A DNA stretch of 64,000 nt, from assembly GCA_023381555.1 (NCBI GenBank), contig JAMCRV010000091.1:9556-73555 (forward strand), given 5' to 3'. The notes below the pieces were generated by a model. It saw only the letters and a program-made list of their open reading frames with translations. It searched no databases and was not told the origin of the DNA. This document shows positions 56,415 through 63,495 of the stretch, piece by piece. Every line of letters begins with the position of its first letter. Positions within the stretch are counted from its first letter, which is position 1. The position numbers and the translations under genes are program-made. The stretch comes from Chloroflexota bacterium (GTDB lineage: Bacteria; Chloroflexota; UBA4733).

Positions 56415-56498
56415 CGGATCTCCGCCTCTTACTAACTCGGAATACGCGGCGCAGTGAGCCGCATCTGTGACTGGGACTTGCCCGTTCTCTTCAGTCCT

Positions 56499-56720
56499 TC
56501 ATCCCTGCGCAGCGAAACGAGGTCCCAAGAACGCCCCCTGGCGTACCAACGTCCGCTGTAGCTCCTGAACTGGAATGGCCCGCGGTGGGCACCCCATCCG
56601 GACGGCGATAGCTGCCGCAGTGCCGGCTGCCTGTCCCATGGCATACCCGGAGGGCTGTACTCGGATAGCGCCAGCGGTGCCGCTGCCGTAAGGCACAACC
56701 GCTGATTATCGGCCTCTGCC
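56499..56720 (-). pseudogene. C-terminal remnant (~65 aa) of a second PF12831-type FAD-dependent oxidoreductase.
   Basis: SGTAGAIRVQPSGYAMGQAAGTAAAIAVRMGCPPRAIPVQELQRTLVRQGAFLG parallels the C-terminus of the intact paralog at 54807-56414. There is no upstream catalytic domain. Confidence 0.45.
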
Positions 56721-56758
56721 ATCGCGGCGGTACACTGCAGAAGTGAAAGGCAGTACCC

Positions 56759-57445
56759 GTGCCCGACAAGCATGACCCCCTTGATGAACGAGGCCTTCAA
56801 TCCCATGGCCCGGCGGAGCCTGCGGACCCGGCCGAGGAGCATACCGACGAGCAACGTGCGGACCAACCGGAGGATACCATCGATATTCGCCCGCTCGCTG
56901 ACGAAGAAGAAAGCGAGCTGGACGCCTTCTACGCGTTGCATTTCACCCCCTTACCGATGGGGTGGGGGGCGGAGATCATCGGCAGTGGAGACAGCCCCAT
57001 GGCTGCACTCCAAGAAGCCTACCTCTCCCTGGACCGCAGCCGGCCGCTGCGCATGCTGGTGCTGGAATCTATGCCTGCGCTGGGAGCCATCGCGAGCATA
57101 CTCGGTACTGATCTGCACAATCTGACCTCAGGTGGTATCACCATTGCCCCGAGTGCCCCCGAGCCTTTCGAGATTCGACAAGTCGCTCAGTATCTCAACC
57201 ACCTTGTCTCGACCCTTGAGGACCTCAAGGCCGCTGGTCGCGAGACGACATCCGGAGCAGAGCTTGGATCCATCTTGGGGCCAGTCGACCTTGGGCTCTG
57301 GCTGGTGATTCACATTTACCTCACTGACGGCGACGAAGAGTGGGACCCGAACTCACTGACCATCGCTGAAGCACTGACGATGGCCCGGCAGGCTGCTATC
57401 CACGCTGAGATGGATACCCTCCCCTTTTCTCGAACCGTGCACTGA
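56759..57445 (+). CDS. Hypothetical acidic protein.
   Basis: 228 aa with a very acidic N-terminus and no recognisable domain. The true start may lie downstream. Confidence 0.25.
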   Translation: MPDKHDPLDERGLQSHGPAEPADPAEEHTDEQRADQPEDTIDIRPLADEEESELDAFYALHFTPLPMGWGAEIIGSGDSPMAALQEAYLSLDRSRPLRMLVLESMPALGAIASILGTDLHNLTSGGITIAPSAPEPFEIRQVAQYLNHLVSTLEDLKAAGRETTSGAELGSILGPVDLGLWLVIHIYLTDGDEEWDPNSLTIAEALTMARQAAIHAEMDTLPFSRTVH

Positions 57446-57917
57446 GCGCGCGCCAGCTTGCACAGCTACACGAGTGTGCGCCGGCGCAGTGCTTGCACAC
57501 CAATGGGCAGCGTCACGGTTACAGTAATGGTGAGTACAGCTAGCTTCCGGCTGCCAAGATACGTAGTCGCGGATCGCTCACCGGTGACGGTGCAGTGGCT
57601 CTGTACGTAGCGTGCAGCGGTGCGCCTTAGCTGACGCGGCCTTACCCGATGGATCTCACGGTGCCCTGAGCTTTCCGGGTTCACGCTGCTCTGACGAGTA
57701 CGAGAAGGAAGGGCCGGGAGAGCAGGAAGCAAAGGAGAATCCGCATGTCGCCACATCTCATCATTAGAGCGTTTCGCCCCCTCACTCTTTCAATCGGTCA
57801 TCGTGAGGCTGTGTTGGCACGAACAGTGCTCTCTGTCGAACAATGGGGTAGCGCATGGCTGTCTGGACGATACCGCTCACTCAGTCGTACGTTAATACGG
57901 GGCAGGGAGAGCAATAA

Positions 57918-58355
57918 ATGAGATGGTGTAGCGCACCTGCTGATCGCGTCCTCGGTGATGTCGACCTGCCTAGCCCTAGGCCCTGTCCAAGGCGCACGCG
58001 GGAACGCCCAATCAGGACGGGCAAGCCGCTCATTGGTGAGGAAGGCGAGGTGGTGCTCAGGGCTGTGACGTACTCGTACCATGCGCTCACACGGAGCTGC
58101 CAGAGAGCGCTCACTCCCGACCAAATTGCCTACGTGCTCATCTACGGCACTCCGGTGTTTCGCGCAGGAGCGCTCTTCTACGTGCTGCGCCGGCGTGACA
58201 TCACGCCCGGAGATCTGCGTTCCGATGAAGTTGCCAAGCTCGAAGGTGCCGTCGTCTTAGTCAGCGAAGGTGTCATTACGACGGTGTATCGCAACCGTCG
58301 CGCGCTGCGGAGCATCCGCAAGAAGCAGAAGTATTTCCGAGGCTCAGCGGCGTAA
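57918..58355 (+). CDS. Hypothetical protein, DUF4258-like.
   Basis: The C-terminal ~90 aa (VVLRAVTYSYHALTRS...TPDQIAYVL...VVLVSEGVITTVYRNR) resemble DUF4258 small proteins. The start is uncertain. It is convergent with the helicase-nuclease gene, with a 7-bp gap. Confidence 0.3.
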   Translation: MRWCSAPADRVLGDVDLPSPRPCPRRTRERPIRTGKPLIGEEGEVVLRAVTYSYHALTRSCQRALTPDQIAYVLIYGTPVFRAGALFYVLRRRDITPGDLRSDEVAKLEGAVVLVSEGVITTVYRNRRALRSIRKKQKYFRGSAA

Positions 58356-58362
58356 CCCTGCG

Positions 58363-61300
58363 CTACTGTGTACTGGCCTCATTCGCCGTAACAGCACTCT
58401 CCACTGCGCCTGACGCTCCGGGACGCTTGGGACAGATGAAGAGCTGTGCGCACTCCGAGCAGTGCTGCCCTGGGCTTGGCAGGAACCTCTTCGAGGCAAT
58501 CATCTGTGCTGTGGAATCGAAGGTGTTGAGTCGTGCTTGTTCATGGCGCTTCTGCGGTGGCCACACTTCAATCAATATGTTGTCGAGTGGGTAGAAAAGC
58601 TCTACTCGAGCTGTCTCATCCGCCGCATACTGACTGAGAGCGAGGCGGTAGAGCGACAACCGGTCTTCACGTGGATGCTCGTCCGACCTCCTGCCGAACC
58701 GGATGCGTCGCAACACAAGGCCGCTGCCGGTCCGTTTGCTCTCGTCGAAGTCTACGCGGATGACCGAGTGCGGGAGGTCAACCCACAGGGAGTGGCACCA
58801 TACCTGGAACGCTCCGTCACGTTGCTCGCGATCGTAGAGGCTCCGCAGCATCGTCTCCGCCCGTTGACGGTAGTACTGCTCATAGGTAGACCCAACAGGC
58901 CCGCCAGCCGCCCACTTGTCCTCAAATTCCGAAAGCGTGGCCTTCCAGGAAGGTAGCACACCCGCGGCTATGCTGTTCCGTAGCCATTCTCCCGTCTGGG
59001 ACACAACGCTCGTGTACCGGCGCTGCGGGTTCTGCTGAGAACCACTGTCCAGCAACAATACGCGTTGGTAGTAGAACTGGAGCGGGCAGCGCAGATAGTG
59101 CTCGATGGCATAGGCAGAGTGCCGTGGTTTGTCGCTCTTGATGGCCGGTAGCGAAGGCTCTACGATGGCCGCGCCGCTCATCCAGCTATCATTAGCCCTC
59201 TCAGCCGTGCCAAGTCGTTGAGGATGGACGCCAAGCCGTTCGCAATACGGAAGCACGAGGTCGACAAAGGGCGAAGGCTTCTCCTCACGTTTGAGATAGC
59301 GCTTCGACCAGCTCAGCACGAGCACGTCGCGCGCCCGGCTTATCGCTACGAAGAAGAGAAAGGCTTCATCGGAGGTGTCAGCGCTGGGTATCGCCGAGAG
59401 CAAGCCAGGCGGTGGTGGGCAGGGTTCTCCCTTACTTGACGCTGGAAATCGGCCCTTCGTCAGGTGAGGCACCGCGACTACGGGGAATTCGAGTCCCTTA
59501 CTCGCGTGCACCGTGAGGATGCGGATCGCGTCCACTCTTTCCAAGCTGGGAGGAAGCCCGATGCGCCCTTCGCCCATCTGGAAGAGGCGCCGTGCGTAGT
59601 CGACGAACGTCAAGCGACCGAATCCTGGCACACCCGCTGTCTTGCGCACCTGGAAGCTGCGCGCGAGCAGCACGAGCTCTCCGAGCGTCACAAGCTCAAG
59701 CTGCGCTTCAATGCCACCATCACGCAACAGTGTCTGGAGATGTGCCGGAGCAGAGAATAGGTACCGGGCCAATCCTTTGGCTGGGTCGCCATCGCGAAAG
59801 CACGTGGCCAGAAGCTCTCCAAGACGCTGGAACTGGATGGCGTCATCTGGTGCAATCCCTGCGATCTCGCCTGCTCTCCTAAGCGCGTCAGGAAAAGGGA
59901 TTCCGCAGAGACGCGCGTTGGTCACGAGGGTATGAGCCGCCTCCGGATGCAGCGAAGGATCTACAAGGCGCGCGAGACCGAAGAGATCACCGCCGTCACC
60001 TTCCTCCGTCAAGGACAGGAGCGACAGGAGCTCTTTCACTTCTGGGCGGGTGAAGAGATTTCCCAGATAGGCTACGGGCACGCCACACTGCTTCAACGCC
60101 TGGGCGATAGCTTCCGCCTGGGAGTTCGTCCGGCACAGCACGGCCATATCGCGGAAAGGGCGCCCCGCCGTGTGCTCATCGTGCAGCGCTGCTGCCAGGG
60201 CAGCATGCTCACTCGCGCCATCGCTACTCTCAAACAGCCGCACCGCAGGCCTCATTGCCCTTGCCAGGTCGCCGCGCTCACTCCCCCACGGCGCTATCGG
60301 ATCGTCCGGGAGAATCTGATTGGCAACGTCTGAGAAGAGACCGACCAGTGGTGCAACGGACCGGTAGTTGCGGGCGAGGTGAATACGGCTTGCTTCCCGG
60401 AAGTCTTGCTCGAACTGACCGACGTTGGCCGGAGAGGCCCCACGGAACTGGTAGATCGACTGGCGCAAGTCTCCTACCGCCCACAATCCACGGCCTTCGC
60501 TCGCCAGTAGCTTGAGCAGGTAGGCACTCGCTCGGTTGACATCCTGATACTCATCCACAAGCACGTGCTGGTACTGCGCCTGAAGCTCATTCCGGACATC
60601 CTCGTACTCTTCGAGCAGATGAACCACCTTCACCAGCAAGTCACCGTAGTCCACCATAGTCAAGCTGTTGAGAAGAGCGTCGTAGTAAGCATAGAAATCC
60701 GCCACCTCCATAGCCTTGGCTGCCGCCAGCTGTTCCGCGTCCTTGTGCGCCGCATCCCACTGCCGCTCCGCAAGCCGGCGATAGTCCCGAGGCGTCTTGA
60801 GCTCATCCTTGGCACGCGACACCGCTCTCAGAAGGTCCGGTAGATAGAGCCCTGGCTCTCCCGGATGCGCATAGTGCTGCAGCGGCAACGAGGCGATTCG
60901 CTCGTCAAGCATGAGGTAGGCATCGACCGTGTCGATGATGCGCACATCCGGCCGCAGACCCGCTCGCAGGCTGTAGCGCCGTAGGAGCTCGAGGGAAAAG
61001 GAATGAAACGTCTCTATAGTGAGACCCGTAGCCGCATCGCCGGCGGCGGAAGCAAGGCGATCGCGCAGCTCCTGTGCCGCCTTGTTCGAGAACGTCAGCA
61101 CGAGAATACTGCGAGCTGGAACGTGCTGCTCACGGAGCAAATACTGCACCCTACCACTCAAGGCACGCGTCTTTCCCGTGCCCGGACCTGCTGCGACAAG
61201 GAGGGCCCGGCCCTTCCAACGAGCGGCTTGATCTTGCGAGAGGTCTAGAGTGACGGGTTGAGCTTCCACGGCGGCAGCTACCGGCTCATTACCGGGAGCC

Positions 61301-61863
61301 TGTTCAACAGGAGGCTCAGCCGTCAACACCCCAGCAATGAGCTGATTGATGACGGCGCTTTCGGGCAGCTCCAATCGCTCTACGAGTTGAGCCAGGGTTG
61401 CGCCTTCCCGAATGAGCGCTCGGAGCAGCAACTGCGGGGCCAGAAGCTCAGCAGCGAAGACGCTCGCCTCCATCTCAGTGCGCTGTCGTGGATTGTAGGT
61501 GGCGAGCTTACTCGTCGAGGATAGCGAAGACTCGTCTGGCAGCGCTTCGACATCACCATCACCACAGTTAGTGGCTGCACCGTGCTGGTGACCGAGCACG
61601 AAGTGACCGATTTCGTGAGCGACGGCAAAGTTCTGCGCCGCCAGGCTGAGCGACCTATCGACGGAGATCCATTCGTCAACCAGTCTAGCCCGCGCACCGT
61701 CGAGCGCCGGGTCGTCTGGACCGAGGGGCAATAAGCCGAGGTCCGTCTGGGCAAGCGCGGCAGCGACCACGAGCGAGCCCCAGGTACAGCCATCGTCGTC
61801 AGAGCAGCAAATGTTTGTGCGGAAGGTCTGGGCCCGCAGACGCACCTGTGCCCAGGTATCCAC
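58363..61863 (-). CDS. Three-domain fusion: M78-family (ImmA/IrrE-like) zinc metallopeptidase, UvrD/Rep-type SF1 helicase, and Cas4/AddB-like PD-(D/E)XK Fe-S nuclease.
   Basis: 1166 aa. The N-terminus has HEXXH (AVAHEIGHFVLGH) plus a downstream Glu (EASVFAAELLAP), which is the ImmA/IrrE pattern. The helicase carries motif I AAGPGTGKT, motif II LVDEYQD, motif III DLRQSIYQFRGA, ARNYRS, VLCRTN and motif V/VI TVHASKGLEFPVV. The C-terminus has YAIEHYLRCPLQFYYQR (the Cas4-like N-terminal Cys), VDFDE, and a terminal C-x2-C-x5-C (HCSECAQLFIC). The GTG start is 3 nt after the upstream gene's stop. Confidence 0.8.
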   Translation of the reverse strand: MDTWAQVRLRAQTFRTNICCSDDDGCTWGSLVVAAALAQTDLGLLPLGPDDPALDGARARLVDEWISVDRSLSLAAQNFAVAHEIGHFVLGHQHGAATNCGDGDVEALPDESSLSSTSKLATYNPRQRTEMEASVFAAELLAPQLLLRALIREGATLAQLVERLELPESAVINQLIAGVLTAEPPVEQAPGNEPVAAAVEAQPVTLDLSQDQAARWKGRALLVAAGPGTGKTRALSGRVQYLLREQHVPARSILVLTFSNKAAQELRDRLASAAGDAATGLTIETFHSFSLELLRRYSLRAGLRPDVRIIDTVDAYLMLDERIASLPLQHYAHPGEPGLYLPDLLRAVSRAKDELKTPRDYRRLAERQWDAAHKDAEQLAAAKAMEVADFYAYYDALLNSLTMVDYGDLLVKVVHLLEEYEDVRNELQAQYQHVLVDEYQDVNRASAYLLKLLASEGRGLWAVGDLRQSIYQFRGASPANVGQFEQDFREASRIHLARNYRSVAPLVGLFSDVANQILPDDPIAPWGSERGDLARAMRPAVRLFESSDGASEHAALAAALHDEHTAGRPFRDMAVLCRTNSQAEAIAQALKQCGVPVAYLGNLFTRPEVKELLSLLSLTEEGDGGDLFGLARLVDPSLHPEAAHTLVTNARLCGIPFPDALRRAGEIAGIAPDDAIQFQRLGELLATCFRDGDPAKGLARYLFSAPAHLQTLLRDGGIEAQLELVTLGELVLLARSFQVRKTAGVPGFGRLTFVDYARRLFQMGEGRIGLPPSLERVDAIRILTVHASKGLEFPVVAVPHLTKGRFPASSKGEPCPPPPGLLSAIPSADTSDEAFLFFVAISRARDVLVLSWSKRYLKREEKPSPFVDLVLPYCERLGVHPQRLGTAERANDSWMSGAAIVEPSLPAIKSDKPRHSAYAIEHYLRCPLQFYYQRVLLLDSGSQQNPQRRYTSVVSQTGEWLRNSIAAGVLPSWKATLSEFEDKWAAGGPVGSTYEQYYRQRAETMLRSLYDREQRDGAFQVWCHSLWVDLPHSVIRVDFDESKRTGSGLVLRRIRFGRRSDEHPREDRLSLYRLALSQYAADETARVELFYPLDNILIEVWPPQKRHEQARLNTFDSTAQMIASKRFLPSPGQHCSECAQLFICPKRPGASGAVESAVTANEASTQ

Positions 61864-61866
61864 TCG

Positions 61867-62484
61867 TCACTCCGCCGCGGCAGTATTGATAGCGGACCAG
61901 CGTTCCTCCGCCAGCCAGACTCTCATCTCCGGAGTTGTCTTCGCCCGTTCGAGCGCAGCGTCGAAGGACTCCTGCAGGGGCTCAATGGGGACGGTGCGGG
62001 CGTAGTGCGCCCCTTGCGGCTGCGGCTGTTGGAGATAAGCGATGACCTGGGCGACGCTCAAGTCAAGAACGTCCGCCAAGCGACTAATGAGCTTGACCGG
62101 CAATGAGCCGAGACTGAGCCCGCGCATATCTATCTTGCCAAAAACCTCGAGGGGTATCCCTATCGCACCGGCTATGGCACTCTTGCACTTTCCGAGCTCT
62201 CGCCCGCGCGCAGAAAGCGTCTTGGGCATCCTCCGGAGGGCCTGTGCCATGGTTTCTGTCAGGATGCGCTCGAGTTCAGGATACTGATCGTTCTCCAGAA
62301 CATCCTCGTCGGCATCGACCGTCGCTTCGTAGAGCTCGGCAAATTCTAGGAGCCCACTTGCATGTTGCGGATACTGCTCGAGAAGGTCGAAGAGGGTGGG
62401 ACCTGTGCGCCGCTCTCGCCCCTCGACGTAGAGCATGAGAACGCTGTCCAACTCAGCTTCGGAACGCTCGGGGGTAGTCATCAT
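61867..62484 (-). CDS. XRE-family helix-turn-helix protein, the putative repressor partner of the peptidase fusion.
   Basis: The start was chosen at MMTTPE; its ATG overlaps the sigma-factor TGA (ATGA). A central HTH is present (LSARGRELGKCKSAIAGAIGIPLEVFGKI...LSVAQVIAYL). It lies directly upstream of the M78 peptidase domain, mirroring ImmR-ImmA/DdrO-IrrE gene pairs. Confidence 0.6.
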   Translation of the reverse strand: MMTTPERSEAELDSVLMLYVEGRERRTGPTLFDLLEQYPQHASGLLEFAELYEATVDADEDVLENDQYPELERILTETMAQALRRMPKTLSARGRELGKCKSAIAGAIGIPLEVFGKIDMRGLSLGSLPVKLISRLADVLDLSVAQVIAYLQQPQPQGAHYARTVPIEPLQESFDAALERAKTTPEMRVWLAEERWSAINTAAAE

Positions 62485-63338
62485 CGGGAGTACTCCTCTT
62501 GTGAGCCAAGTAACTGCCTGAGCCACCTCAGCGCCCTGTTCCGGATGTTTCTCACCGTGCGATCGGTCACGCCTAGCACACTGCATACCGTCCTCTCAGA
62601 TGGATCCTGCGAGGTGACCTTGAGCTTCTCCTCGAACAGCAAGATGAGGACCTGTTGCTCTTGATACGGCAGCCTCAGCAAGGCATCTCGTAGCTTTGCG
62701 CTCTCCACACTGGCAAGAACCTGAGCGTCAGGCGTGGGAGCCGGATCAACGGGCTCCCACTCCCTGTCGTCGCCCTGGCTGTTTGTGCTGTTGAACCTCT
62801 CTTCGTGCTGCTGGCGGTTGTCGCGCGCAGAACCGGCCCCGCGCGCCGCGGAGATCACGATTCGCCTGAGTGCTTCCTGAAAGTTTGCTTCCCAAAACTC
62901 CCGTTGGGGATCCAGTATATGTTGCCAGAGCGTGACGCTCACTTTTTGAAGGAAGTCGCTGCTCTCCGGAGAGTGACGCCACCTATCCACAGCTCTCGCG
63001 TACCGGAGAATGAGGGGTTTGGTCCGCAGCACGAGCAGCTCCGCTGCCTGGTCCCTTTCCTCTTGATTGCCGTGCCGCACGAAGTAGCGCACTGCCATCA
63101 CGAGCACCTCAGACGCGACGTAGCGTTGACTCCCTTGGTTTGCCTCGCGGAGGTAGTCCCAGAACGCACGGGTATGCACTGGCGGCAGCTTGCGAAGCTG
63201 CTCCGCAACGGTCTCGTTGAGCGTGTACTGGCGTGTCGCACGCACATCCAGCGTGTGAAGACTTCCTTGGCGTCCCGCTGTTGCCATCCCCGAACTCCCA
63301 CCCAGGACCAGTAGCTTCTCCTGACGGGAGTGTGGCAT
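62481..63338 (-). CDS. Sigma-70-family RNA polymerase sigma factor (ECF-like/divergent), first gene of the three-gene operon.
   Basis: The C-terminal region 4 HTH is clear (LPYQEQQVLILLFEEKLKVTSQDPSERTVCSVLGVTDRTVRNIRNRALRWLRQ). A region-2-like helical segment lies upstream (YVASEVLVMAVRYFVRHG). Confidence 0.65.
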   Translation of the reverse strand: MPHSRQEKLLVLGGSSGMATAGRQGSLHTLDVRATRQYTLNETVAEQLRKLPPVHTRAFWDYLREANQGSQRYVASEVLVMAVRYFVRHGNQEERDQAAELLVLRTKPLILRYARAVDRWRHSPESSDFLQKVSVTLWQHILDPQREFWEANFQEALRRIVISAARGAGSARDNRQQHEERFNSTNSQGDDREWEPVDPAPTPDAQVLASVESAKLRDALLRLPYQEQQVLILLFEEKLKVTSQDPSERTVCSVLGVTDRTVRNIRNRALRWLRQLLGSQEEYSR

Positions 63339-63452: not shown

Positions 63453-63495
63453 TTGTCAGCCGCAGAATCGTGACAATATAGTGTCTTGAAGACAC
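63453..63495 (+). promoter_or_regulatory. Putative sigma-70 promoter (TTGTCA, 18 nt spacer, TATAGT) with an overlapping palindrome GTGTCTT-G-AAGACAC.
   Basis: A -35/-10 pair with 18-nt spacing is present. A perfect 7-bp-arm inverted repeat lies immediately downstream at 63481-63495, in the divergent region between DUF488 and the sigma operon. Confidence 0.35.

Follow-up and report, generated by a model that had tools for sequence, protein, structure and literature searches.

What would a bacterium do with a zinc peptidase fused to a DNA helicase and a nuclease-like domain, when the gene for the fusion is coupled to genes for a sigma factor and a helix-turn-helix (HTH) protein? The question is raised by three adjoining genes on the minus strand of a 64,000-nt stretch of contig JAMCRV010000091.1 (assembly GCA_023381555.1, positions 9,556 to 73,555), which comes from a metagenome-assembled genome (MAG) of the Chloroflexi/Chloroflexota; this whole stretch is called the window below, and the three genes are called the triad. 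An initial annotation, made from the sequence alone, described the triad as a tightly packed set consisting of a sigma-70-family factor, an XRE-type HTH protein (here the middle protein) and a peptidase-helicase-nuclease fusion, and considered a role in defence or in the response to DNA damage. Reasoning largely by analogy with the regulatory pair CapH+CapP, we consider it rather probable that the triad is a proteolytic signalling switch related to that pair, with an ATP-driven DNA sensor on its input side and a sigma factor as its output.

The organization of the locus is as first described. The stop codon of the sigma gene and the start of the middle gene overlap in an ATGA at 62484-62481, the stop of the middle gene is separated from the fusion start by 3 nt (TGA-CGA-GTG at 61869-61861), and both downstream starts are preceded by Shine-Dalgarno-like sequences (GAGGAG and GGAG). 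One detail has to be amended, as the sigma gene is present as a maximal open reading frame (ORF) reaching 63338 but its start is probably the ATG at 63287, because a GGGAG Shine-Dalgarno sequence is found there and the same start is used in the NCBI annotation (MCL4508989.1, 268 aa, ‘sigma-70 family RNA polymerase sigma factor’). NCBI entry MCL4508987.1, ‘UvrD-helicase domain-containing protein’, has the same sequence as the fusion (100% identity).

Conservation and distribution of the triad

Full-length relatives of the fusion with its Pfam architecture number more than 120, at 33–42% identity. Scanning one genome per species, we found 23 loci with a peptidase-bearing fusion, among them loci from Acidobacteria, Chloroflexi including Roseiflexus, Verrucomicrobia (Opitutaceae, Oleiharenicola), Alphaproteobacteria (Sphingomonas, Caulobacter, Phenylobacterium, Lichenicoccus, Rhizobiaceae), Betaproteobacteria (Nitrosomonas, Collimonas) and Gammaproteobacteria (Pseudomonas, Kluyvera, Aeromonas, Methylococcaceae). 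A sigma-like gene and a middle gene lie directly upstream of the fusion, in the same order, on the same strand and usually overlapping, in 22 of the 23 loci, which represent at least five phyla, whereas this arrangement occurs in none of about 57 generic UvrD loci. The triad arrangement is therefore conserved far beyond chance, and the gene-neighbourhood survey that the initial annotation had proposed comes out in favour of a sigma, HTH and fusion unit. Four metagenomic relatives with 39–43% identity carry the same triad. The sole fusion-bearing locus without a separate sigma match (L006:4715-5872) has a long ORF of 385 aa that matches the middle protein, possibly a fusion of sigma and HTH parts or else an artefact of ORF calling; the fusion homolog at this locus (P0077, 1276 aa) is without a precomputed M78 match.

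The triad is also found outside chromosomes. About 87 plasmid records hold the full-length fusion, for example those of large Acinetobacter plasmids, and an enterobacterial version is present in Salmonella (at least 1000 contigs with members), Citrobacter and Klebsiella ICEKp14. The fusion is nearly absent from 5426 complete Escherichia coli genomes, and none of 50,697 phage records contains it at full length. Overall, the distribution is patchy and clearly horizontal. On the Acinetobacter johnsonii plasmid pXBB1-9 (L081, 514-7351), the triad and a cassette of ubiquitin-like conjugation genes (Type II Bub) adjoin a mer operon and an IS1008 transposase, which shows that the module travels with resistance transposons on large Acinetobacter plasmids. 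That the triad is itself a mobile-element switch of the ImmR/ImmA type, controlling excision, transfer or replication in response to DNA damage or incoming DNA, is nevertheless highly improbable: integrase, relaxase and conjugation genes are not recurrent beside the triad in the 22 loci, where only ubiquitin-like cassettes recur, and the full-length fusion is found in no phage genome of the collection.

Domains of the fusion protein

The profile hidden Markov model (HMM) searches suggested by the initial annotation gave matches above the curated cut-offs for all four expected families, namely Peptidase_M78 (PF06114; residues 63-174, 32.7 bits, cut-off 22), UvrD-helicase (PF00580; residues 209-488, 211 bits, cut-off 23), UvrD_C (PF13361; best stretch 778-854, 110.6 bits, cut-off 25.6) and PDDEXK_1 (residues 916-1145, 25.4 bits, cut-off 22). 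An AlphaFold2 (AF2) model of the entire protein has a predicted local distance difference test (pLDDT) score of 83.7 and a predicted template modelling (pTM) score of 0.83.

Searching the Protein Data Bank (PDB) with a profile of the N-terminal 185 residues, we obtained CapP as the best match (7t5t, E 1.5e-9) and IrrE as the next (3dte, E 1.6e-8). The zinc and catalytic residues H83, E84, H87 and E130 are invariant in all 49 fusion relatives compared, in keeping with the metallopeptidase of the ImmA/IrrE class (HEXXH) that had been recognized at the outset. CapP is activated by single-stranded DNA (ssDNA) and cleaves CapH between F82 and R83, a site within the C-terminal dimerisation domain of CapH (Lau et al. 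2022, bioRxiv 10.1101/2022.04.27.489752; PMC13228613). The Cys113 of CapP forms a ‘cysteine switch’ that occupies the zinc site and keeps the enzyme inactive, with the switch loop present in about a third of CapPs, and IrrE/PprI is likewise activated by ssDNA (PMC10904395). In the HMM alignment, Cys100 of the window protein, located on a predicted beta-strand (residues 98-100), is aligned with C113 of CapP, and the switch cysteine is kept in 33 of the 49 relatives. The spacing from the second histidine to this cysteine equals 13 residues in both CapP and the window protein, but we did not use this as an argument, given that most relatives have 10 residues. The alignment to CapP and IrrE extends into an HTH-like helical linker, and the position that the GAF domain holds in those proteins is taken by the helicase. 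No GAF match was found in the fusion, in which the linker reaches to about residue 185 and is followed by the helicase (206-857) and the nuclease fold (912-1147). As judged from these alignments, the peptidase domain appears to be CapP-like, with its inhibitory cysteine switch retained.

The central part of the fusion was assigned from the start to a complete UvrD-like helicase of superfamily 1 (SF1), and every further comparison agrees. Sequence matches in the PDB are to UvrD (4c2t, E 2e-61) and also PcrA, a Foldseek search of the model returned PcrA/UvrD (E 2e-34), and the residues of the Walker A, DExx and Q motifs and the arginine finger (K231, D437, E438, Q440, K789 and R843) are invariant in 49/49 relatives.

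The C-terminal domain, taken by the initial annotation for a Cas4/AddB-type Fe-S nuclease of the PD-(D/E)XK class, keeps the fold and the cysteines of such enzymes but not their catalytic D-x-K, and an active nuclease is the part of that assignment which does not stand. The best PDB match of the domain profile is the nuclease domain of AdnA from mycobacterial AdnAB (E 6e-8), AddA and AdnA/AdnB are full-length fold matches of the fusion, and C926, C1135, C1138 and C1144 are invariant in the 49 relatives. At motif III, however, ‘R-l-R-T-G’ of the family is aligned with ‘D-L-K-T-G’ of AdnA, whose Asp is D934, the very residue engineered in the AdnA(D934A) cryo-EM entries among our structural matches. 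Asp or Glu occupies the acid position in 0/49 relatives, and 37 of them have Arg there; at the Lys position, 33 have Arg and 6 have Lys. The motif II Asp is kept in 45/49. Because the motif III acid is missing in every relative, this domain is probably not a nuclease; the fold and its Fe-S cluster would have been kept for structure or DNA binding, without a canonical active site.

Loss of this site removes the main support for a DNA-degrading effector resembling Nhi or Gabija, to which the initial annotation had pointed. We regard as unlikely that the triad is an autonomous anti-phage effector in which the helicase-nuclease unwinds foreign DNA and breaks it down in the manner of Nhi, Gabija or AddAB-like enzymes, and the other parts control its expression. 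The helicase does resemble the GajB- and DRT-associated UvrD helicases in PADLOC, the fusion contains a PD-(D/E)XK fold and an Fe-S cluster, one relative adjoins BREX genes, and the clade of the window copy offers no other candidate effector. But the PADLOC matches are to generic GajB/UvrD models and cover the helicase core only, neither the sigma factor nor the middle protein matches any PADLOC model, no GajA-like gene was found near the window triad, the motif III Lys is mostly Arg in addition to the universal absence of the acid, and a separate effector-like cassette with a promoter-like element of its own stands behind the triad in 19 of 22 loci.

The middle protein and the sigma factor

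By itself the middle protein has no HMM match, and a word-indexed search of 5.8 billion proteins with this single sequence returned only the protein itself. Relatives were therefore recovered by synteny, and a family profile built from the syntenic ORFs finds 973 representatives at 50% identity (E ≤ 1e-3), 274 of them at E ≤ 1e-10. Three of the 23 family members reach HTH_31 (best E 8.4e-8), while others graze HTH_26, HTH_25, HTH_19 and HTH_3. The AF2 model of the window protein (pLDDT 78.6) has Cro/C1 HTH domains as all of its best fold matches; the nearest is NGO0477, followed by CapH, DdrO and ImmR, which are known substrates of M78 peptidases. On the family-level HTH_31 matches and this confident model we base our agreement with the earlier XRE assignment, and the middle gene is predicted to encode a divergent, CapH-like XRE/Cro-C1 HTH protein. 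Its N-terminal domain is a candidate for sigma binding or oligomerisation. Its C-terminal segment, in which a linker of low model confidence (pLDDT dipping to 54 at residues 160-170) leads into the conserved ‘KP...SFE’ part, may by analogy with CapH and DdrO be the region of cleavage or of dimerisation. The initial annotation proposed that this protein is the target of the adjoining peptidase, and the prediction fits, because the peptidase is nearest to CapP and IrrE and the HTH fold is near those of CapH, DdrO and ImmR.

The sigma protein matches TIGR02937, the model for sigma-70 factors including those of the extracytoplasmic function (ECF) type, with 57.7 bits (cut-off 42.9, residues 98-277). 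The family profile aligns with two solved ECF sigma factors, SigE of Rhodobacter sphaeroides (2q1z, E 2.5e-5, chain residues 14-181) and SigL of Mycobacterium tuberculosis (6dv9, E 5.7e-5), in each case over both sigma2 and sigma4 and over nearly the whole length of the structures. Of 23 family members, 16 match Pfam Sigma70_r4 or r4_2 (best E 5.7e-10), the window copy staying below threshold. Family members start with an N-terminal extension of about 60–90 aa without known domain, to which the sigma2-like and sigma4 regions are joined. The first gene is thus a member of the sigma-70 family, as first annotated, and its protein appears to be a divergent yet complete ECF (group 4) sigma factor with sigma2 and sigma4 domains. 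The positions of the features in all three genes are collected in Table 1.

Table 1. Coordinates of the triad, of its protein features and of the ORFs adjoining the fusion, in window positions
Feature	Position	Strand	Basis or remark
Sigma gene	62481-63287	minus	268 aa from the ATG preceded by a Shine-Dalgarno sequence; maximal ORF to 63338
Sigma region 4 (-35-binding HTH) with family-specific insertion ‘KVTSQDPSERT’	62514-62684	minus	Pfam Sigma70_r4/r4_2, translation checked
Middle gene	61867-62484	minus	205 aa, counted from the ATG of the ATGA overlap
N-terminal four-helix domain, residues 1-85, with conserved ‘YPxxA’ motif	62230-62484	minus	
Five-helix HTH DNA-binding domain, residues 90-152	62029-62217	minus	
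C-terminal segment of flexible linker and two helices, with conserved ‘KP...SFE..L’ (P166 invariant)	61870-62007	minus	Alignments
Fusion gene	58363-61863	minus	GTG start, 1166 aa
CapP/IrrE-type M78 zinc peptidase and HTH-like helical linker, residues 1-185	61309-61863	minus	Profile against PDB
HEIGH motif	61603-61617	minus	
Cysteine-switch Cys100	61564-61566	minus	
Third zinc ligand E130	61474-61476	minus	
UvrD/PcrA-type SF1A helicase core, residues 206-857	59293-61248	minus	Pfam, PDB matches, Foldseek
Walker A, GPGTGKT	61168-61188	minus	
DEYQD motif	60541-60555	minus	
AdnA/AddB/Cas4-like PD-(D/E)XK-fold domain with four Fe-S cysteines	58423-59130	minus	PDDEXK_1, AdnA profile match
Fe-S cysteine C926	59086-59088	minus	
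Nuclease motif II Asp, kept	58744-58746	minus	
Nuclease motif III position, R1053-I-R1055 where D-x-K is expected	58699-58707	minus	
Fe-S cysteines, CxxCx5C	58432-58461	minus	
ORF of 145 aa, convergent with the fusion, ending 7 nt from the fusion stop	in 56415-58362	plus	No family match
Hypothetical protein M1296_05625, 228 aa	in 56415-58362	plus	No family match

Downstream cargo and a promoter-like motif

A gene for a ThiF-type E1 enzyme lies 0.7–1.6 kb downstream of the triad on the same strand in 19 of 22 genome or plasmid loci, accompanied either by Multi_ubiq, Prok-E2_E and JAB-ThiF or by multiubiquitin, DUF6791-ThiF and DUF6527. In most loci the triad thus heads a longer operon of genes for ubiquitin-like conjugation (Bub-type, putatively immune), a feature which the initial annotation had missed and which speaks for regulation more than for an effector function. 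In a published survey of Bub operons, CapW or CapH+CapP adjoin 219 of 544 operons and CapK+CapS another 59, and the accompanying table lists no regulator for the Type II Bub rows of Salmonella, Klebsiella and Collimonas. At the Kluyvera and Collimonas rhizosphaerae loci we find the triad directly upstream of ubiquitin-like cassettes, and the Salmonella, Citrobacter and Klebsiella proteins share 90% clusters with those of Kluyvera.

Right after the fusion stop, loci from different phyla have in common a bipartite motif, TT(T/A)CCGG and (C/G)GATT(A/G) with a spacer of 15–17 nt. Eleven loci have it clearly and at least 4 others in a weaker form; in 664 kb of control loci, a loose regular expression finds only 21 matches on the two strands together. 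A second copy is located inside the sigma gene in 11 loci, some 215 nt short of its end, and 70–310 nt upstream of the sigma gene in 5 loci that have no internal copy. Within the internal copies, the encoded Ala-Ile is always written GCG-ATT, even in the GC-rich Sphingomonas, so selection on the DNA itself is indicated. The motif is unlike the sigma-70 consensus, shows ECF promoter geometry and accompanies the sigma gene from one phylum to another. From these properties we infer that TTwCCGG-N15-17-CGATT is the cognate promoter of the sigma factor, one copy serving the cargo and the other feedback. A shared promoter had been sought upstream of the sigma genes by k-mer counting and by aligning upstream regions; both failed, and the motif emerged downstream of the fusion.

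Other elements were seen downstream of the triad. At nine loci (L003, L004, L007, L010, L016-L018, L021 and L081) the leaders fold a similarly placed stem-loop 15–45 nt downstream of the -10-like element of the post-fusion motif, often with an AATTCC-like loop and with stems that vary (CTGC/GCAG, CCGC/GCGG, CCAGAA/TTCTGG, GGCGAA/TTCGCC); it may serve the XRE protein as an operator, or act as an RNA element of the 5' untranslated region. Perfect inverted repeats are not enriched in the cargo leaders when compared to shuffled sequences (40% versus 27%). In the acidobacterial locus L001 (9391-9425), four tandem copies of ATTTCGG follow the fusion stop, and the -35-like TTTCGG and -10-like GGATT are merged into the repeat array. 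At the Roseiflexus locus L015 (11629-11665), a run of GGTTAGGG-type repeats (telomere-like heptamers or octamers) is found about 4 kb downstream of the triad.

A proposed switch and the points against it

In the switch that we favour, the fusion would be sensor and transducer in one, its CapP-type zinc peptidase being held inactive by the internal cysteine switch. A UvrD-type motor and a non-catalytic Fe-S nuclease fold, the latter probably only binding or threading DNA, would replace the GAF domain of CapP. The helicase would load on aberrant DNA such as ends, gaps, forks or phage replication intermediates, and by generating or tracking ssDNA would bring about the release of the peptidase. 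As in CapP and its substrate, the released peptidase would then cleave the neighbouring CapH-like XRE protein, most likely in its C-terminal region, and the loss of this protein would free the co-encoded ECF-type sigma factor. Transcription from TTwCCGG-N15-17-CGATT by the freed sigma factor would switch on the Bub-type cassette behind the fusion and feed back on the sigma gene. The sequence comparisons show which domains are present, that the active sites are conserved and the nuclease motif is degenerate, and that gene order, cargo and promoter-like motif recur with the triad; DNA engagement as the trigger, cleavage of the XRE protein by the peptidase, restraint of the sigma factor by the XRE protein and use of the motif by the sigma factor are the steps that we infer, and the restraint could be that of an anti-sigma factor or of a promoter-occluding repressor. 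A bolder formulation, which we put forward only tentatively, makes the triad a fourth family of ‘controllers of associated pathways’, and the first with an ATP-driven motor on DNA as its sensor and a dedicated ECF sigma factor as its output: the helicase would act as a danger sensor for phage or damaged DNA, the XRE protein as an unconventional cytoplasmic anti-sigma factor and the sigma factor as the activator of Bub-type operons, while in copies without cargo the sigma factor would act in trans or would itself be the effector through competition for RNA polymerase.

Several observations weigh against this account. Pfam Sigma70_r2 is matched by 0 of 23 sigma family members, and no anti-sigma fold was detected among the fold matches of the middle-protein model. 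The motif could be a binding site of the XRE protein instead of a promoter of the sigma factor. A sensor in the form of an ATPase of 1166 aa is costly, so the helicase may itself act as an effector. In the window, a convergent ORF ends 7 nt past the fusion stop and no co-oriented cargo follows, and a position weight matrix scan for the motif near the window triad and in its clade gave matches at background level only. The closest relatives of the window triad are cargo-less as well, and the regulatory model is therefore extrapolated to this clade from others.

The window copy and its cargo-less relatives

No Bub genes (ubiquitin-like protein, E2, E1 ThiF or DUF6527) are present in the window. 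Between the fusion and a flavin adenine dinucleotide (FAD) oxidoreductase gene lie about 2 kb (56415-58362) with two plus-strand ORFs as the only genes, neither of which has a family match; this stretch may be an unrelated small cassette or a remnant of lost cargo. Metabolic genes are found beyond it (the FAD oxidoreductase, an aldo/keto reductase and a solute symporter), and a divergent DUF488 gene lies upstream of the triad. Elsewhere in the 64-kb window there are no copies of the motif above background, and when the 3' regions of the sigma genes of the window, L082 and L083 were aligned no common DNA element was found. A scan for sigma-70 promoters and terminators around the window triad gave nothing above shuffled expectation on the minus strand; the only sigma-70-like promoter of the region is on the plus strand (63453-63482, -10 TATAGT). 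A perfect palindrome, GTGTCTT-C-AAGACAC (63481-63495), abuts this -10 element where the divergent DUF488 gene begins; it lies upstream of the sigma gene, at a distance of about 195 nt from the start at 63287 and about 145 nt from that of the maximal ORF at 63338, and is a possible operator.

The cargo-less relatives have differing downstream neighbours: in one the triad is followed by an IS630-type transposase, in another by non-coding DNA, and in a third, the metagenome locus of P0010, a triad with 39–40% identity is followed by an ADP-ribosylglycohydrolase gene. The P0010 triad stands back-to-back with the BREX genes BrxE, BrxA and BrxB, so the cargo-less clade does occur in defence-island settings. 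A tRNA-like 3' end after the L083 triad was not confirmed by ARAGORN.

Two further explanations have to be weighed against the proposed switch. The first, that this copy is a decaying or orphaned remnant, a regulator which has lost its Bub-type cargo and no longer functions, would account for the missing cargo, the missing motif and the convergent gene abutting the fusion stop. We consider it very unlikely, since the three frames are intact and tightly coupled in translation, all catalytic residues of the peptidase and the helicase are kept, and at least four independent relatives with 39–43% identity have the same cargo-less arrangement, which argues for selection on the stand-alone triad. 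The cargo-less triad would then be a functional form and not debris, although this is the weakest part of our account, and the window copy would be a stand-alone version acting in trans or through the sigma factor itself, or else a module with lost cargo.

The second explanation, which we deem unlikely, is a host DNA-damage regulator of the IrrE/DdrO type, in which DNA lesions, once processed by the helicase, activate the peptidase and the sigma factor runs a repair or stress regulon in trans. IrrE is the second-best match of the peptidase and DdrO is among the best folds for the HTH domain, IrrE/PprI and CapP share activation by ssDNA, and the window copy is chromosomal, cargo-less and placed among metabolic genes. 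A host regulon of this kind sits poorly, however, with the patchy, horizontal spread of the triad (plasmid records, ICEKp14, a neighbouring IS630 transposase) and its near-absence from complete E. coli genomes; in other clades the motif adjoins the module itself, and elsewhere in the 64-kb window it does not occur above background.

Relation to known systems

Among described regulators, the pair CapH+CapP comes closest to the triad, sharing the M78 zinc peptidase (HExxH and a downstream Glu), the cysteine switch and the adjacent XRE-type HTH protein. The differences are substantial. Where CapP has its GAF domain, the fusion has about 960 residues of UvrD helicase and Fe-S nuclease fold; the HTH protein has twice the length of CapH and additional domains at both termini; a sigma factor, coupled in translation, belongs to the triad as an obligate third component, in the order sigma-HTH-peptidase; and the promoter looks ECF-type, not like a repressed sigma-70 promoter. 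The location of CapH+CapP upstream of immune-type operons is seen for the triad at the level of the family (19/22 loci), whereas the window copy has no such operon next to it. The pairs IrrE/PprI+DdrO of Deinococcus and ImmA+ImmR of ICEBs1 also join an M78 peptidase to an XRE protein, and theirs cleaves the neighbouring repressor upon DNA damage, but they lack helicase, nuclease fold and sigma factor and control a host regulon or a mobile element instead of an adjacent cassette.

The remaining parts have counterparts in other systems. AdnAB and AddAB share with the fusion a UvrD-like SF1 motor and, C-terminal to it, a PD-(D/E)XK domain of the RecB/Cas4 type with a four-Cys Fe-S cluster; the fusion differs in being a single polypeptide without partner subunit, in its N-terminal peptidase, in having R-x-R for D-x-K and in a helicase core nearer to UvrD/PcrA than to AddA/RecB. 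The triad recalls pairs of ECF sigma and anti-sigma factors in its sigma2 and sigma4 protein, translationally coupled with the next gene, in the promoter-like bipartite motif of 15–17-nt spacing that other clades have near the sigma gene, and in the proteolytic release proposed here. In the triad, by contrast, the partner is a cytoplasmic XRE HTH protein without recognizable anti-sigma domain, the protease would be a soluble M78-helicase fusion and not a membrane site-1/site-2 protease or ClpXP, and the sigma factor has an unusual N-terminal extension and a region 4 insertion. CapW/BrxR and CapK+CapS sit in the same genomic niche, ahead of operons such as Bub, CBASS and BREX, and respond to DNA damage via ssDNA, but belong to unrelated families (a WYL repressor; a GHKL kinase with a STAS-wHTH protein), work by de-repression and have neither sigma factor nor motor.

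The initial annotation did not recognize this architecture as a described system, which is correct in one respect and incomplete in another. In the full-text literature that we covered, most subscription journals being outside its scope, helicase or UvrD is never linked with CapP, and we found no account of the triad, its promoter or its degenerate nuclease domain. CapH+CapP, on the other hand, is known, and a sigma-70 gene beside capH/capP has been mentioned once, unanalysed, in the case of 24 CBASS systems with CapPs that seem to be of the ordinary cysteine-switch type. We therefore regard the triad as an apparently undescribed variant, containing a helicase and a sigma factor, of the CapH+CapP regulators that respond to DNA damage and phage.

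Implications

How bacterial immune operons are controlled is an active question, and a large share of Bub operons is without an assigned regulator. The three families of regulators known so far (CapW/BrxR, CapH+CapP and CapK+CapS) all sense ssDNA passively. If our reading is true, the triad would add an active, motor-based DNA sensor, positive control by a private sigma factor with a portable promoter, and an example of a nuclease fold reused as a non-catalytic DNA-binding part. Given its abundance (973 clusters of the middle protein, and members on at least 1000 Salmonella contigs), these ideas can be tested easily in model enterobacteria, and the compact pair of sigma factor and promoter could serve as an orthogonal expression switch inducible by DNA damage or phage.

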